Below, one piece after another: positions 3,971 through 19,557 of a DNA stretch of 64,000 nt. The notes under the pieces are model-generated. The model was not told where the DNA came from. It saw only the letters and a list, made by a program, of their open reading frames with translations, and searched no databases. The stretch covers positions 3,293 to 67,292 of the forward strand of contig BJHF01000021.1 in assembly GCA_014191855.1 (NCBI GenBank), read 5' to 3'. The position numbers were made by a program, and so were the translations under genes. Position 1 is the first letter of the stretch; each line of letters starts with the position of its first letter. The DNA is from Deltaproteobacteria bacterium. GTDB taxonomy: Bacteria > Myxococcota_A > UBA796 > SXON01.

Positions 3971-6205
3971 TCAAAGCTCCCAGCGCGCGCTGAACATCAG
4001 CGTGCGACCGGGAAGGGGGTAGCCAGCAAAATCGGTGACGGCGGAGACCGCGCGCGAAGTGTCGGTCGGATCGGCGGGGTTCCGTGGAACCACCTCGGTG
4101 ATCGTGTCGGTGAGGTTGAGCACGGCCACTTCCACGTTTGGCCACTTTGGGGTTGGCTGGGTGCGCACAAACAGCCCGTGGATTGACCTCGGCGCGCTCT
4201 GATACAGGTTGCCCGCATCCCAGTAGTTCGGCGCGGTGTAGCTGAAGGTATGCCCCACCCGCACCCGCTCCTGCCAATGTACCGAGGTGCTCTGCCAAAC
4301 CGCGAGCGGCGGCGTCCGGGGCAGCTCGTTGTTCACGGTGTTGGAGCCCACCGTCAGGTTGCGGGAAAGCTGCCAGGTCACGTTGGTCTCGCTGTCGAGC
4401 ACCGAGAAGGCGCCGAGCACCAGCGCCCCTTCAACCCCCTGAACCCACGTGTCCCCAAAATTGACCGGCGTGAAGGACTTCTGGCTGTTCTGCACCCATA
4501 CGATCCGGTCCTCGCTCACCAACCAGAACGCGGCGGCGTCGAACGTACCGGTGATCGCCCAGGAAGTGGGCGCTTCGATCCGCGTGCCGACGTCGGCTTG
4601 CCAGCCAGTCTCCGGAAGCAGCTCCGAATTGCCCTCCAACGTACCGTGGTTGCCGAACATCTCCACCAGATCGGGCGGGCGAAAATAGCGACCGCCGTTC
4701 CCCTTGAGCGCGAGCCATCGCGTGGGCCGGACGAGCACGCCCAGGCGCGGGTTCACGGCACCCACAAACGGAGCTGCGTCCGCGGCGGACCCGCTCTGAG
4801 ACGCAGAGGACCCGCCCAGCTCCCGATTGTCGATCCCTTCGAGCGCCACGACGGGCGAGAGCGTGAGCCGCTCTGCGAAGAGTCGGAGATCGGCGGACAA
4901 CGCCACGCTCCCCGCGAGCCTCGTTCGCTCGGGCTCGGACTGGTCGCCAGCCAGGTCGTTGATGGTGATGGACTCGCTCCGCACCCCGATCGTCGCATTC
5001 GGCTGGATCCACGCCGCCGGGGCCCAACCGGCGTTCAGCCGCATACCCGCCGTGCCCAGCTCGTCCAGCTCGTGGCGGTGGGTGCCGTCGAGCTGGCCGC
5101 TCTCGTCCACCAGCTCCTCGGCTCGCCAGAGGTGCCACAGCGTCGCCGTCCCGGCCCAGGTCGATCCGCAGCCTTCAAGCTGGGCCACGCTCAGATTTCT
5201 CGTCGTGGTGAGCCGCGCTTCGTCGGCCGGGAGGTTGGCGGTGCCCGGCAGCCCCTCGTCGCGGAACAAGGGCACGTCGGCCAGGGAGAGCCGCCAATCG
5301 CCAAGCACGGCCCGGCCCCGGGCGAACCCCGAGAATTGCAGCTTGTCGTTGTTCCCGCGCCGCTCAACGTGGTCGTCGAGCACGTTGTAGATGGTGCTGT
5401 TGTCCGCAAAATACTCGAAGTCGTCGCGAGTGCTGAGGGCGTCGAAGAAGAGCTGGCCAGAGAGGGGTCGTGTGCCCCCCTCCGGCCTTCGGCCACCTCC
5501 CCCCGCTTCGGCGGGGGGAGGAGAAAGCGCACCGGCCCCGTACACGTCCCCCCGGGCCGTGTCCCAGCTCCCGAAGGCCACACCGCCTCGACCGCCGCTC
5601 CCTTCGCGCGTCACCAGGTTCACCACGCCGCCTATCGGCGAGGCCCCGAAGCTCACGGGGGCGTTCCCCCGCCACACCTCGATCCGCGAGAAAGCGCCCA
5701 GCGGAAGCTCACTCAGGTTCACGACGTCCGCCCCGTCCGGGTTGAGCGGCACCCCGTCGAGGAACACTTCCACTTGCCGCAAACTCGCGCCACGGATGCT
5801 CACCGCCGCAAAGTCGCCCAGCCCTCCCAGCCGCTGCACGTTGGTACCGGCGGCGCTGTCGATCATTGCGGCAACATCAGCGCTCCCCGCGGTTCGAGCG
5901 TCGGGAGTCAACACCGTCACCGAAGCGCTGGTGGCCGACGGATTCGGCCCCGCCGGACGCTCCGCCGTTACGACGATTTCTTCGTTCGCGGGTACGGGCA
6001 CAGGCGGCGCGCCCACCGTCGCAAACGCGGGGTCGGCCGGAGGGACGGAATCCTCGGCGTAGGCGGCGGCGATGGCGAACAAGCAGAACACGGCGCTCCG
6101 AGGGAGCAGCCGGGGCGAATTCGCGCGGATCCGGGACGGGATCCAGGCGGACGCGGTATCCCGGCTCCGGGGATGGGGCGGTGAGGCCCCGAGCGTCCAT
6201 CCCAC
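3971..6205 (-). CDS. TonB-dependent outer-membrane receptor, BtuB-like (riboswitch-controlled)
   Basis: 744-aa ORF. TonB-box/plug region: EEIVVTAER, VTVLTPD, NVQRLGGLGDFAAVSIRGASLRQVEVFLDGVPLN, IEVWRGNAPVSFGASPIGGVVNLVT. Long beta-barrel body. GTG 6205 has GGGAGA 7 nt upstream, inside the B12 box of the riboswitch. The exact start is uncertain. Confidence 0.88.
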   Translation of the reverse strand: MGWTLGASPPHPRSRDTASAWIPSRIRANSPRLLPRSAVFCLFAIAAAYAEDSVPPADPAFATVGAPPVPVPANEEIVVTAERPAGPNPSATSASVTVLTPDARTAGSADVAAMIDSAAGTNVQRLGGLGDFAAVSIRGASLRQVEVFLDGVPLNPDGADVVNLSELPLGAFSRIEVWRGNAPVSFGASPIGGVVNLVTREGSGGRGGVAFGSWDTARGDVYGAGALSPPPAEAGGGGRRPEGGTRPLSGQLFFDALSTRDDFEYFADNSTIYNVLDDHVERRGNNDKLQFSGFARGRAVLGDWRLSLADVPLFRDEGLPGTANLPADEARLTTTRNLSVAQLEGCGSTWAGTATLWHLWRAEELVDESGQLDGTHRHELDELGTAGMRLNAGWAPAAWIQPNATIGVRSESITINDLAGDQSEPERTRLAGSVALSADLRLFAERLTLSPVVALEGIDNRELGGSSASQSGSAADAAPFVGAVNPRLGVLVRPTRWLALKGNGGRYFRPPDLVEMFGNHGTLEGNSELLPETGWQADVGTRIEAPTSWAITGTFDAAAFWLVSEDRIVWVQNSQKSFTPVNFGDTWVQGVEGALVLGAFSVLDSETNVTWQLSRNLTVGSNTVNNELPRTPPLAVWQSTSVHWQERVRVGHTFSYTAPNYWDAGNLYQSAPRSIHGLFVRTQPTPKWPNVEVAVLNLTDTITEVVPRNPADPTDTSRAVSAVTDFAGYPLPGRTLMFSARWEL
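5474..5522. repeat. GC-rich palindromic element, copy 1 (in frame inside the TonB receptor CDS)
   Basis: GCCCCCCTCCGGCCTTCGGCCACCTCCCCCCG (32 nt) is identical to 24079-24110. It is followed by the hairpin closure CCTCCCCCCGC-ttcg-GCGGGGGGAGG. Confidence 0.85.
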
Positions 6206-6350
6206 GATCCGGTCTCCCGGCTTACGGCCATTGTTCCTGCCACCTTCCCAGGTTTCCCCAGTGGTGTGTCGGCAGGACGTGGACCGATCACGGTTGCGGG
6301 CCAGCGCCGGAGTTTCACCGGCTTCCCTCGACCGTGGGTTGGTGAGCGGC
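6206..6350 (-). promoter_or_regulatory. cobalamin (B12) riboswitch
   Basis: The minus strand reads GGTCGAGGGAAGCCGGTGAAACTCCGGCGCTGGCCCGCAACCGTGA ... CACCACTGGGGAAACCTGGGAAGGTGG ... GTAAGCCGGGAGACCGG. This matches the conserved AGGGAA-GGTGAAA-TCC core, the CCACTG/GGGAAGG pairing and the B12 box (AGCCGGGAGACC at 6209-6223). It sits directly 5' of the TonB receptor start. Confidence 0.85.
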
Positions 6351-6410
6351 GGTTAGTCTGCCTGCGCCGGGCGGGCAAGCGTGCATCGGCGGATTTGGTG
6401 AGCCGGGCCG

Positions 6411-6569
6411 TCAGTCTCCGATGTACGACATCACCGAGAGCCCCCCGACGAGTACGGCTCCGGGCACAACCGGCAGCGCGGCCGGAACGCACACCCACAT
6501 CCACGGCCGTTCCGACCGCCGTCGCCCAACGAAGATGCCGATCCACATCCCAACGCGGAGGATGGCCAT
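6411..6569 (-). CDS. possible small membrane protein (52 aa)
   Basis: ATG 6569 inside ORF 6411..6713. MAILRVGMWIGIFVGRRRSERPWMWVCVPAALPVVPGAVLVGGLSVMSYIGD has two hydrophobic segments. GC3 is high; the upstream part of the ORF looks like Arg-rich shadow. No homology recognised. Confidence 0.3.
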   Translation of the reverse strand: MAILRVGMWIGIFVGRRRSERPWMWVCVPAALPVVPGAVLVGGLSVMSYIGD

Positions 6570-6604
6570 GGTGCGGGCGTAACGCTCCGTCCGTAGCGAT
6601 CTCC

Positions 6605-7432
6605 TCACCTCGGAAGCACGCGGCGGCGCTCTTCCCACGCGATCAGGCCGTCGCTCGCTTGGAACGGCACGTCGTCGCGCAACGGGCGAACGGCGCGCAC
6701 GTCGAGCTGGCACCTCAAGGCGGCGAGCAGCTTCGCGTCCGCCGACGCGGCTCGATGGCGACGCCCCGAGCTCAGCGCCACGCCAAGCAGGGCCGCGGCC
6801 TCCTCAGGCTCAAGCCCCACTTCGGCGGCGAGGTGCGCAGCCACGACGGTAACCTCGGTGGTGTCATGCTCGCGGCCCGCCAACCCCGACCGGGCGATCA
6901 CCGCGCTCGCGCTGTCGGCGAGGTGTTCGCGCAGGAGCGCCGGGGTCCGCTTCGTCTCCACGACGTCGCCCCATCCAGCGAGCTCGCGGAGATGATCTCC
7001 GTTGATCCGTGGCAACACTGCACGCACCCGCCCGGCGGTGGCGCTCCCGATCACGCGGGCGCCAAGGAGGTCGGGCAGGTTCGTGTTCTCACGCCACGGG
7101 TCCGGCGGGACGCCGTGACGCTGATCGTTACAAAGCACGTACTCAAACGCCGAGCTCAGGTGATCGCCGCCGTGGATGTCGGAGATGGAGGCGGAGGGAA
7201 GCCTGGCCCGCAGGGCGCGCCCCAGGGAGGCGGAAAGCGCCTGCGCCAAGCGGCCAGTCCGCGCCCGATTGGCGAGCAGGAGTAGGTGCACGTGGGTGTC
7301 CGAGATGTGGAAGGCGAGCAGCGCCGCGCCCGCAGTGGCGACGATCGCGCGCACGACGCGGCGAACCGTCGCCCGATCTCGGGGGAACACCGTGCGCCTG
7401 GGGCTGCGAAAAACAAGCTGGTATGCATCCAT
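6605..7432 (-). CDS. RAYT-like / IS200-type Y1 HUH transposase-domain protein with C-terminal extension
   Basis: ORF 6605..7501. HUH motif HISDTHVHLLL. Catalytic-Tyr region SSAFEYVLCNDQRHGV (compare YIxxNPxxxG of IS200/RAYT). Start moved to ATG 7432 (MDAYQLVFRS) because the 23 codons upstream have poor GC3 and ATG 7501 lies in a hairpin loop. No TnpB, no second copy and no IS ends were seen. Confidence 0.65.
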   Translation of the reverse strand: MDAYQLVFRSPRRTVFPRDRATVRRVVRAIVATAGAALLAFHISDTHVHLLLLANRARTGRLAQALSASLGRALRARLPSASISDIHGGDHLSSAFEYVLCNDQRHGVPPDPWRENTNLPDLLGARVIGSATAGRVRAVLPRINGDHLRELAGWGDVVETKRTPALLREHLADSASAVIARSGLAGREHDTTEVTVVAAHLAAEVGLEPEEAAALLGVALSSGRRHRAASADAKLLAALRCQLDVRAVRPLRDDVPFQASDGLIAWEERRRVLPR

Positions 7433-7548
7433 GCGCCGCCGTGGAGCAAGCGGCGTGCCATTGGATGAACCAGCTTTTTTCACCGCCGCAGTGACGGACA
7501 TCCGTCAGTGTCCGCCGACGTCCGTCAGTAGAGCCGCGTCAAGGGGGG

Positions 7549-7563
7549 TGGCACGTTTTTTGG
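7549..7563 (+). promoter_or_regulatory. sigma-54-like -24/-12 element pointing into the repeat array
   Basis: TGGCACGTTTTTTGG matches TGGCAC-N5-TTGC(A/T), with the final C replaced by G. The predicted start is near 7575, where the first (partial) repeat unit begins. Confidence 0.3.
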
Positions 7564-7569
7564 GCGGGG

Positions 7570-8755
7570 AGGGGCGCTCGTTGGCGAAGGCGCCGGCCTC
7601 CACGCGAGGTCGACGCCGTTTCAACCGCGAAACGGCCCCGGCCCACCGCGCAACCGCTCACAACGGGCAGGGCGACCGCGCCCCTCGGGCGTTGTGAGCG
7701 TTGGCCGACTGTGTCGCGACAGTAGAACGCGCGCACGCGACCCCAGGCGCCTGCGCCCAAGCGAGATCGACGCCGTTTCAACCGCGAAACGGCCCCGGAC
7801 CCCGTGAAAGGCCCCTTCCCCACCGCGAAACCGCTCACAACCGGCGGGGCGACCGCGCCCCTCGGGCGTTGTGAGCGTTGGCCGATTGTGTCGCGACACC
7901 AGAAGGCGCGCCGGCCGCCTCCGGCGCTGGCCTGCACGCGAGATCGAAGCCGTTTCAACCGCGAAACGGCCCCGCCCCACCGCGCAACCGCTCACAACGG
8001 GCAGGGCGACCGCGCCCCTCGGGCGTTGTGAGCGTTGGCCGACTGTGTCGCGACAGTAGAACGCGCGCACGCGACCCCAGGCGCCTGCGCCCAGCGAGAT
8101 CGAAGCCGTTTCAACCGCGAAACGGCCCCGCCCCACCGCGAAACGGCCCCGCCCCACCGCGAAACGGCCCCGCCCCACCGCGCAACCGCTCACAACCACG
8201 GGGGCGACCGCGCCCCTCAGGCGTTGTGAGCGTTGGCCGGCGGTGTCGCGACAATAGAACGCGCGCACGCGACCCCAGGCGCCTGCGCCCAAGCGAGATC
8301 GACGCCGTTTCAACCGCGAAACGGCCTCGGCCGCCGCGAAACGGCCCCGCCCCACCGCGAAACCGCTCACAACCGGCGGGGCGACCGCGCCCCTCGGGCG
8401 TTGTGAGCGTTGGCCGGCGGTGTCGCGACAATAGAACGCGCGCACGCGACCCCAGGCGCCTGCGCCCAAGCGAGATCGAAGCCGTTTCAACCGCGAAACG
8501 GCCCCGCCCCACCGCGCAACCGCTCACAACGGGCAGGGCGACCGCGCCCCTCGGGCGTTGTGAGCGTTGGCCGACTGTGTCGCGACAATAGAACGCGCGC
8601 CGGCCGCCTCCGGCGCTGGCCTGCACGCGAGATCGAAGCCGTTTCAACCGCGAAACGGCCCCGCCCCACCGCGCAACCGCTCACAACGGGCGGGGCGACC
8701 GCGCCCCTCGGGCGTTGTGAGCGTTGGCCGACGGTGTCGCGACAATAGAACGCCC
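7570..8755. repeat. tandem array of 7 composite 156-199 bp hairpin-rich repeats, plus a degenerate partial copy
   Basis: Unit starts are 7618, 7775, 7952, 8108, 8307, 8484 and 8641, each beginning GTTTCAACCGCGAAACGG. Each unit contains hairpin GCCGTTTC/GAAACGGC, long hairpin CGCTCACAACG/CGTTGTGAGCG, palindrome TGTCGCGACA, and one of two alternative tails. There is an internal 21-nt mini-repeat present 1-3x. Confidence 0.95.
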
Positions 8756-8766
8756 GGCCACGCCCC

Positions 8767-19360: not shown

Positions 19361-19557
19361 CAACCGGGCTCGACCTACTCGCCGGAGTAACGGCACCCCG
19401 GTTGAACCTATCAACCGGGCTCGACCTACTCGCCGGAGTACGGGCACCCCGGTTGAACCTATCAACCGGGCTCGACCTACTCGCCGGAGTACGGGCACCC
19501 CGGTTGAACCTATCAACCGGGCTCGACCTACTCGCCGGAGTACGGGCACCCCGGTTG
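19361..19557. repeat. tandem array of 3.9 copies of a 51-bp REP-like palindromic unit
   Basis: Units at 19361, 19412, 19463 and 19514 (the last truncated at the upstream stop codon). Units 2-4 are identical and unit 1 has 2 substitutions. The unit is CAACCGGGCTCGACCTACTCGCCGGAGTACGGGCACCCCGGTTGAACCTAT, with nested inverted repeats. Confidence 0.95.

Follow-up and report, generated by a model that had tools for sequence, protein, structure and literature searches.

The 64-kb window analysed here (the whole stretch taken from contig BJHF01000021.1) belongs to Deltaproteobacteria bacterium LBMAG42, a metagenome-assembled genome (MAG) from Lake Biwa, and contains seven head-to-tail, hairpin-rich units (7615-8759, ~1.2 kb) between the stop codon of a permease gene and a gene for an HUH-type protein (6605-7432). 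Our preferred reading, to which we give a probability of about 0.55, is that gene and array form a REPtron-like pairing, in which a divergent Y1-HUH protein with a C-terminal helix-turn-helix (HTH) domain keeps its own lineage-specific array of DNA hairpins at the flanks of its gene. The decisive evidence is comparative, namely the co-occurrence of gene and array across the protein family. A REPtron-type array had already been proposed in a first-pass annotation of this DNA, and the proposal is supported by the Y1-HUH fold, by the invariant motifs of the protein and by the private arrays of its homologues; the array would then be the substrate of the HUH protein.

The family was surveyed in 75 further metagenomic loci that were found through the protein alone. 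An array was counted when it was tandem, had a period of at least 35 bp and, on the upstream side, lay within 700 bp of the gene, and a locus entered the upstream count when at least 300 bp of DNA was present. Tandem arrays were found upstream of the gene in 24 of 59 loci (41%) and downstream in 10 of 52, and the farther flanks contained only 4 arrays in 184 kb. The 200 nt upstream of the gene also fold better than far windows (median folding z +0.33), both in the loci with an array called by Tandem Repeats Finder (TRF; median z -2.05, p = 9e-10) and in the loci without one (median z -1.81, p = 8e-8), although the distant windows are mostly coding, so that this contrast is partly one of intergenic versus genic DNA and must to that extent be held against our reading. 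The upstream array frequency of 41% is still far beyond that of usual intergenic regions. Folding significantly better than that of shuffled sequences was obtained for roughly half of the consensus units.

Homologues at 30-45% identity also carry flanking tandem hairpin arrays, each with its own sequence. Distant lineages have unrelated stems and a shared architecture, and the repeat sequence co-varies with the protein lineage. In some relatives both flanks are occupied, mostly in direct orientation, and single extra units, again mostly direct, stand right after the stop codon in L131, L133, L150, L151 and L168. The periods of the 36 arrays beside family genes fall mainly into two classes, with 18 arrays at 51-54 bp and 11 at 62-64 bp, and other periods (102, 115, 124) seem to be sums of values from the two classes. 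In the protein tree the arrays of both classes are intermingled, as in the sister loci L111 (52) and L116 (63), which differ by the length of the hairpin interior. The units of the window (156/157, 177 and 199 bp) grow by a 21-bp mini-repeat and lie near whole helical turns. The step of ~10.5-11 bp in the family periods suggests helical phasing, which may reflect constraint or ancestry. Several candidates for a more specific family-wide signature were tried and rejected. A conserved orientation of the hairpins relative to the gene does not hold, since the G-rich strand is gene-sense here and in L016 and antisense in most relatives; a foot motif (CCCCGAGTT..., or GGGG plus hairpin) showed a k-mer enrichment no better than that of shuffles; a TGACSG dyad was in no more than modest excess; and no k-mer shared across the family arrays rose above chance.

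The 275-aa product of the gene, labelled hypothetical protein LBMAG42_18520 at NCBI, looks like a very divergent member of the Y1-HUH superfamily (IS200 and RAYT type, the latter being the transposases associated with repetitive extragenic palindromic, or REP, elements) that is extended by a C-terminal HTH-like domain. Its AlphaFold model (14 homologues; predicted local distance difference test 87, predicted template modelling score 0.85) has the beta-alpha-beta-beta-alpha-beta-alpha topology of Y1 transposases, with the HUH motif on a beta strand and Tyr98 on the next helix (89-100). Comparison of this model with the PDB by Foldseek retrieved the E. coli RAYT bound to a REP hairpin (4er8_A; probability 1.00, target TM 0.44, root-mean-square deviation 4.0, 116 columns), and the ISDra2, IS608 and IS200 transposases were also matched with probability ~1.0. 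The residues H47, H49, Y98, H106 and R126 are invariant in 80 diverse members of the family, the first three also in the 14 homologues, and the consensus around the tyrosine among the 80 members, YVLRQxxxH, contains a Y-x3-Q signature. The C-terminal consensus AxxLGxSxRTVxRLR is HTH-like in appearance. HTH_23 matches this end in 20 of the 80 members (best E 2.7e-5) and an Xre-like HTH in 10; the C-terminus of the window protein has weak HTH_23/HTH_28 matches, its own HTH match having E 0.1.

The family is sizeable. An HMMER scan of 1.8 billion representatives gave 1,228 clusters (50% identity) with E values no higher than 1e-3, of which 582 remain with a limit of 1e-30, and the best 150 matches are mostly 250-300 aa long with near-full coverage of the profile. 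There is no Pfam model for the family, members with a source annotation are called 'hypothetical protein', NCBIfam, PADLOC and PHROGs hold no family for the window protein, and the plasmid and viral collections contain no homologue.

The gene, the array and the sequences between them are arranged as follows.

6605-7432, minus strand: gene of the 275-aa Y1-HUH-like protein; HUH is H47-V-H49, Tyr98 lies in FEYVLCND, and the C-terminal domain is HTH-like.
7445-7460, minus strand: sigma-54-type -24/-12 promoter TGGCACGCCGCTTGCT, between array and gene, ending 13 nt before the ATG at 7432.
7492-7529, no strand: two copies of the palindrome consensus TGACGGACGTCCGTCA, between array and promoter, one at 7492-7507 (1 mismatch) and one, half-conserved, at ~7514-7529.
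7570-7614, no strand: degenerate partial unit at the gene-proximal edge, containing one half of the hairpin of tail B plus the junction ...GAGGTCGAC; the same sequence in three further assemblies of the organism.
7615-7771, no strand: unit 1, 157 bp; short hairpin hp1, one linker, long hairpin (AGGGCG apical form), TGTCGCGACA followed by GTAG, tail A; 98% identical to unit 3.
7772-7948, no strand: unit 2, 177 bp; hp1, divergent extra linker, long hairpin, TGTCGCGACA followed by CCAG, tail B.
7949-8104, no strand: unit 3, 156 bp, the reference unit; hp1 at 7949-7970, long hairpin at 7989-8034, palindrome at 8046-8055, tail-A palindrome at 8078-8087.
8105-8303, no strand: unit 4, 199 bp; three copies of the 21-nt mini-repeat (8116-8178), tail A.
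8304-8480, no strand: unit 5, 177 bp; two mini-repeat copies (one divergent), tail A.
8481-8637, no strand: unit 6, 157 bp; tail B.
8638-8759, no strand: unit 7, truncated; stops after TGTCGCGACA and ATAG, 8 nt from the permease stop codon; edge identical in L001.
8767-10569, minus strand: permease open reading frame (ORF) with AA_permease_2 and Usp domains.

Each unit is anchored by the exact 22-mer GCCGTTTCAACCGCGAAACGGC, whose copies start at 7615, 7772, 7949, 8105, 8304, 8481 and 8638 and which has no copy outside the array in the whole window. This anchoring reproduces the seven units of the first-pass annotation, whose starts are the same series shifted by 3 nt, with lengths of 157, 177, 156, 199, 177 and 157 bp and a truncated last unit of 122 bp that ends at ~8759. 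The position of the array between the permease stop (8767) and the gene at 6605-7432 was likewise correct, and the modules that had been listed (hp1, the long hairpin, the palindrome followed by GTAG, ATAG or CCAG, tails A and B, the mini-repeat) were found where they had been placed. The palindrome TGTCGCGACA occurs once per unit. The marker of tail A, CAGGCGCCTG, is present in units 1, 3, 4 and 5. That of tail B, GCGCCGGCCGCCTCCGGCGC, was found in units 2 and 6 as claimed, whereas the partial copy, to which a tail-B hairpin had also been assigned, has only half of it. The 21-nt mini-repeat occurs one to three times per unit, with three copies at 8116-8178, as seen by direct reading and by TRF, which calls it at 8114-8186 (3.5 copies, 98% matches). 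For the array itself TRF gives 7624-8520 with a period of 177 (also 157 and 198).

The long hairpin is 46 nt in size and imperfect, with the arms CGCTCACAACG...CGTTGTGAGCG, and its pattern CGCTCACAAC...GTTGTGAGCG occurs seven times in the array against 0.00 expected from 100 shuffles. The two forms of its apical helix are distributed as had been described, and unit 4 can be added to those with the GGGGCG form; the variant of units 1, 3 and 6 gives an A-C mismatch on the plus strand and a G-U/G-T wobble on the minus strand. Modules are shared among the units in mosaic fashion, and pairwise unit identity is 58-98%. They abut head to tail and no unique spacers are present among them, in agreement with the earlier conclusion that this is not a CRISPR array. 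The longest exact internal repeat is 118 bp, so that reads or k-mers longer than this can resolve the array. Both edges of the array are reproduced exactly in three independent short-read assemblies of the same organism, each of which breaks or has an N-gap inside it; the edges are therefore confirmed, and the copy number of seven rests on one assembly. No tRNA or tmRNA was found in the array, a search that detected no tRNA genes.

Closer relatives show how the array behaves when the surrounding sequence changes. An array homologous to that of the window, likewise with an assembly gap, is present in the 77%-identical orthologue L016; it keeps TGTCGCGACA, the GTTTCGCGG mini-repeat and, at the base of the hairpin, the stem AACGCTCACAACGC/GGTTGTGAGCGGT, while the apical hairpin differs in sequence with its pairing still possible. 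The downstream TonB receptor gene is conserved in this locus and the upstream neighbour is not the permease, which indicates that the array travels with the HUH gene and not with the permease; in L012 the upstream neighbour is divergently oriented, and neighbourhoods vary between distant homologues. The gene of a 37%-identical homologue (L009/L010) is preceded by at least 2.5 units of ~154 bp, each with two CGCACAAC...GTTGTGCG hairpins, and is followed by another unit. The paralogue L004, from the same MAG as the window, has its own upstream repeats and a GTTGTGAGAG/CTCTCATAAC hairpin. Scanning the GTDB genomes with the pattern GCTCACAACN{20,32}GTTGTGAGC gave at least 80 loci, which were mostly unrelated or chance hairpins (e.g. 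Runella repeats); among the matches listed, which did not include LBMAG42, the relevant loci were L022/L023 and L092 only. L022/L023, from one MAG, has an array with a 156-bp period that is 75-79% identical to that of L010, and its GCTCACAAC...GTTGTGAGC stems differ from those of L010 by a paired change on both arms. We rejected the idea that this is an orphan array, since relatives have units on both sides of the gene and a gene contig of 1-2 kb between two arrays would escape binning; L022 and L023 are probably the two flanks of one gene-bearing locus. The L092 homologue has two GCGCTCACAAC...GTTGTGAGCGC hairpins just past its stop codon. The CTCACAAC-type stems of L010, L022/L023 and L092 are related and their interiors differ, and the most conserved element of the clade is an 11-bp stem pair with 24-27 nt of variable, self-pairing sequence between its arms.

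Array length also varies among assemblies. The P0013 locus, assembled from different samples as L012, L013 and L015, contains ~6.5, 3.5 and 1.5 copies of a 53-bp unit, and the arrays of L177 and L178, a second such case with N-gaps, differ by 106 bp; these differences reflect either real copy-number variation or the collapse of short-read assemblies. Contigs often end 88-205 nt before the family gene, as expected at repeats.

A separate observation concerns one family member from Candidatus Schekmanbacteria (L175 10001-14397, JACPHN010000203.1), whose gene follows a NERD/protein-kinase gene and overlaps by 4 nt the start of a 1,202-aa MmeI/Eco57I-type restriction-modification gene, a setting that resembles a defence island. 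Three diverged long hairpins GATCATAACGCG...CGCGTTATGATC, missed by TRF, lie upstream of it.

The sequence between array and gene contains the only perfect match in the window to the consensus TGGCAC-N5-TTGCW. The identical motif with the same 13-nt spacing to the start codon is found in L004, L005, L016 and L017 and, in weaker form, in L009. The spacing would place the transcription start within ~2 nt of the ATG, and thus imply a leaderless sigma-54 transcript in these six related loci. In the wider family, 8 of 68 loci (~12%) score at least 9/10 for such a motif, compared with 8 of 750 background windows, which makes the sigma-54-type promoter a trait of the clade. Since it sits between array and ATG, the array is not the leader of the HUH gene. 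Promoters of this type require a distant activator. The TGACGGACGTCCGTCA dyads, which are also found upstream of the homologues in L004, L005, L016, L017 and L009, are candidate double-stranded sites for such an activator or for the HTH of the protein itself.

Folding of the array was analysed with DNA and RNA parameters. With DNA parameters the 150-nt core of unit 3 gave z -2.6 on the plus strand and -2.3 on the minus strand relative to shuffles, and its long hairpin gave -3.8 and -4.3. With RNA parameters the energy over the array is -691 kcal/mol on the minus (gene-sense) strand versus -581 on the plus strand. At gathering thresholds the sole Rfam match in the window is a cobalamin riboswitch (6189-6351), and no Rfam family was found for the array at gathering or permissive thresholds (E up to 10), the best E within 7400-8900 being 0.15 for a 27-nt palindrome match. 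A scan of the array found no sigma-70-like promoter and one weak terminator-like site, fewer than in shuffles, and tail B of unit 6 on the minus strand is the sole terminator-like site in 6000-11000. Changes in the internal loops between units are uncompensated. On the minus strand the mini-repeats read GGTGGGGCGGGGCCGTTTCGCG (8116-8178, 8335-8355), and the at least four consecutive runs of four or five G residues carried by units 4 and 5 might form a G-quadruplex.

If the REPtron-like pairing is correct, the two domains of the protein would have different targets. The HTH would bind the loop-less perfect palindromes on duplex DNA, both TGTCGCGACA in each unit and TGACGGACGTCCGTCA near the promoter. 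The long imperfect hairpins and the short hp1 would be extruded, or become single-stranded, during replication or supercoiling, and the HUH domain would recognise, cut and rejoin them. Such reactions between adjacent units would let units be gained, lost and rearranged, either as a by-product or as the function itself, and this would account for the mosaic of tails A and B, the one to three mini-repeats and the variable copy number. The gene would be expressed from the sigma-54-type promoter. This division of labour, with its binding and cleavage, is inferred from the TnpA of IS608/ISDra2 and from TnpA-REP of E. coli (PMC3333891, PMC3479197); any benefit to the host would likewise be hypothetical.

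Several observations weigh against the reading. At the sequence level the evidence for an HUH protein is weak: Pfam Y1_Tnp is the only N-terminal match and stays below its cut-off (E 0.0015, 19 bits versus 23), detecting 1 of 80 family members even at E 0.01; a sequence search of the PDB gave nothing significant, even with the 80-sequence profile; and the E-values of the Foldseek matches are weak (~7e-3 to 0.1). The HUH assignment consequently rests on fold, topology and invariant residues, and the label 'RAYT-like' that the gene had first received is justified at the level of the fold and not by Pfam or by the classical REP features, which were not found. The hairpins are 46 nt long instead of the 20-40 nt of REPs, and GTAG occurs in 2 of 7 units, where it follows a loop-less palindrome and is no conserved hairpin foot. 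The array of the window is upstream only, with no unit in the 253 nt 3' of the gene (unstructured, z +0.5 and +1.1), its modules do not recur in the other 62.8 kb of the window, and no solitary units were seen in ~152 kb of homologue flanks. The close homologue P0007 (L005-L008) has no array. Finally, a second tandem hairpin array in the window (19361-19557) has no HUH-family gene nearby, so that such arrays are not exclusive to this gene.

An alternative that is compatible and could coexist with the REPtron-like reading, though improbable as the whole explanation, is that the units are phased duplex binding sites (an enhancer, an operator or a scaffold) for the HTH of the protein or for a sigma-54 activator, which would control the gene or build a nucleoprotein complex, with the hairpins being incidental. 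Each unit contains perfect palindromes that are unable to form hairpins (TGTCGCGACA, CAGGCGCCTG), dyads lie between array and promoter, the C-terminus of the protein is HTH-like, and the unit lengths near whole helical turns, together with 29 of 36 family periods at 51-54 or 62-64 bp and the interspersion of the two classes in the tree, are what phased sites would give. An enhancer is unlikely, however, where arrays lie downstream of genes, the sigma-54 motif is present in just ~12% of family loci, and the conserved 11-bp stem pair with its arms 24-27 nt apart is the design of a hairpin or cruciform and not of a dimer operator. The invariance of the HUH and Tyr residues is also left unexplained. 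It is quite unlikely that the gene and its flanking units are a present or recent IS200/IS605-like mobile element whose end hairpins were tandemly amplified. The Y1 fold with the Y-x3-Q signature of insertion sequence (IS)-type transposases, the same-orientation units on both sides of the gene in several loci, reminiscent of the left- and right-end hairpins of IS200/IS605, the differing neighbourhoods of distant homologues and the presence of two paralogues in the LBMAG42 MAG would all agree with an element of this kind. The paralogues, however, are just 56% identical and no near-identical second copy was seen, synteny with the TonB receptor is retained at 77% protein identity, the flanks hold no tnpB, the plasmid and viral collections gave no matches, and no unit lies downstream of the gene in the window.

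A role of the array as RNA, which the first-pass annotation had offered as its second candidate (a multi-module structured RNA), found little support, and we regard it as very unlikely; it would be transcribed and act as a multi-hairpin noncoding RNA, as an array of small RNAs, or as a stabilising or terminating 3' end of the permease mRNA. REP elements and bacterial interspersed mosaic elements (BIMEs) do act on mRNA stability, both strands have strong predicted structure, the minus strand more so with RNA parameters, the apical variant of units 1, 3 and 6 pairs as a wobble on the minus strand only, and tail B is terminator-like on that strand. Yet neither an Rfam family nor a promoter-like site was detected, terminator-like sites are below the number in shuffles, and the HUH gene has its promoter downstream of the array. 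The gene next to the array on the upstream side varies among loci and is divergent in L012, the better-folding strand is antisense in 18 of 25 family arrays, so that there is no consistent transcribed sense, and the internal-loop changes lack compensation. The least probable explanation is an ordinary, functionless minisatellite (a variable-number tandem repeat) that stands beside the gene by chance. Mosaic units with 58-98% pairwise identity, apparent copy numbers that vary (L012/L013/L015, L177 versus L178) and the presence of another, unrelated array in the window fit a minisatellite, but this would not explain why unrelated sequences of the same hairpin design recur beside homologues throughout the family, or why stems are conserved between orthologues while their interiors change.

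The pairing can be compared with four described systems of the superfamily. REPtrons consist of RAYT/TnpA-REP genes flanked by clusters of REP/BIME hairpins (Nunvar 2010 PMC2817692; Ton-Hoang 2012 PMC3333891; Messing 2012 PMC3479197; Bertels & Rainey 2011 PMC3116915) and have been reported even without a dispersed REP family (PMC3733652). In REPtrons and in our locus alike, a Y1-HUH gene, single-copy in REPtrons, stands beside clustered hairpin repeats that vary in sequence from one protein lineage to the next; REP clusters too form regularly spaced tandem arrays, and among relevant solved folds that of the E. coli RAYT-REP complex is closest. The protein described here differs in having 275 aa with an HTH-like tail, in falling below the Pfam Y1_Tnp cut-off and in a catalytic helix of the form Y-x3-Q/N...H in place of the RAYT motif. 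Its 46-nt hairpins are set in composite units of 156-199 bp (51-64 bp in relatives), compared with REPs of 20-40 nt, and lack the 5' GT[AG]G tetranucleotide of REPs; flanking copies are mostly direct, whereas those of REPtrons are typically inverted on both sides; and no dispersal was seen in the 62.8 kb of the window and ~152 kb of flanks, while REPs are dispersed in high copy throughout the genome.

TnpA-Y1 subclass 2.1, or TIRYT, has a C-terminal HTH (Bac_DnaA_C, HTH_23, HTH_28; Quentin et al. 2018 PMC6006769, Di Nocera et al. 2013 PMC3733652), and its genes have no REP-like hairpins nearby and are bordered by long terminal inverted repeats with GGGG[AT][CG]A[CG] (PMC6006769, PMC3733652). 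A Y1-HUH core followed by an HTH is the order that the present protein seems to have too, and proteins of the subclass are also among the longest of the superfamily. Hairpin arrays, however, replace inverted repeats around our gene, which is bracketed by no terminal inverted repeats in the window, and Pfam Y1_Tnp detects subclass 2.1 while failing to detect nearly all of the 80 members of this family. TnpA-Y1 class 3, which its authors place between IS and REPtron, is recorded from Planctomycetes, Acidobacteria and Proteobacteria (PMC6006769), has a CnGA hairpin foot and up to ~600 copies per genome, and is rare (24 proteins; PMC6006769). It shares the Y-x3-Q signature; neither a CnGA foot nor high copy was seen here, and the present family has ~1,200 clusters. 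The IS200/IS605 elements have the same Y1-HUH fold (the ISDra2, IS608 and IS200 structures match) and carry subterminal hairpins on one strand at both ends. They are, however, mobile and multi-copy, each end bears a single hairpin, the transposase has ~130-150 aa and no HTH, and tnpB often accompanies it; none of these traits was seen here. The locus would work like REPtrons, with the apparent domain order of subclass 2.1 and the signature of class 3, and fails defining features of each. No description of tandem arrays of 51-64 or 156-199 bp as the cognate structure was found in the open-access full-text literature consulted on these systems.

Tentatively, and with more doubt than confidence, we propose that the locus is the first described example of a large unannotated Y1-HUH/HTH family that keeps private tandem hairpin arrays at its own locus in place of dispersing them, with unit lengths held at ~5 or 6 helical turns or, as here, at multiples of turns, in what would be a self-contained 'array-keeping' HUH system. 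If so, the HTH would read duplex palindromes and the HUH domain would process extruded hairpins, and the array would be a regulated nucleoprotein or recombination structure and not selfish dispersed DNA. REP/RAYT systems are the standard example of a domesticated transposase that has a repeat family of its own. The combination of an HUH core, an HTH and tandem, locus-bound hairpin arrays in a sizeable family missed by sequence models bears on this case, and repeats and enzyme lie within 2 kb, compact enough for reconstruction on a plasmid. Neither the apparent quantisation of the periods (51-54 or 62-64 bp), which can switch from one sister lineage to another, nor a conserved sigma-54-type promoter so close to the start codon would have been expected in this superfamily. 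On the practical side, such arrays break short-read assemblies and can drop the gene from MAGs.

A KdpD-like sensor kinase gene (DUF4118, HisKA, HATPase_c), which is two separate gene calls in L001, and an ORF that is, judged from its translation alone, an OmpR-type response regulator occupy 10698-13330 and adjoin the permease-Usp gene in divergent orientation. On the other side, the cobalamin riboswitch (minus strand, Rfam RF00174, 80 bits) immediately precedes a gene for a TonB-dependent receptor (3971-6205, minus strand), an ordinary arrangement for B12 uptake that sets the downstream boundary of the locus of the HUH gene.

The second tandem hairpin array of the window (19361-19557) has a minus-strand gene on either side, stands upstream of a gene for a YkuD L,D-transpeptidase, and shows no similarity to any family array fetched. 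It consists of 3.9 copies of a 51-bp unit, CAACCGGGCTCGACCTACTCGCCGGAGTACGGGCACCCCGGTTGAACCTAT, with 98% identity, each unit forming a long hairpin CAACCGGG...CCCGGTTG with an inner TACTC/GAGTA stem, and its last unit ends in a near sigma-54-like motif, GGGCACCCCGGTTGCT.

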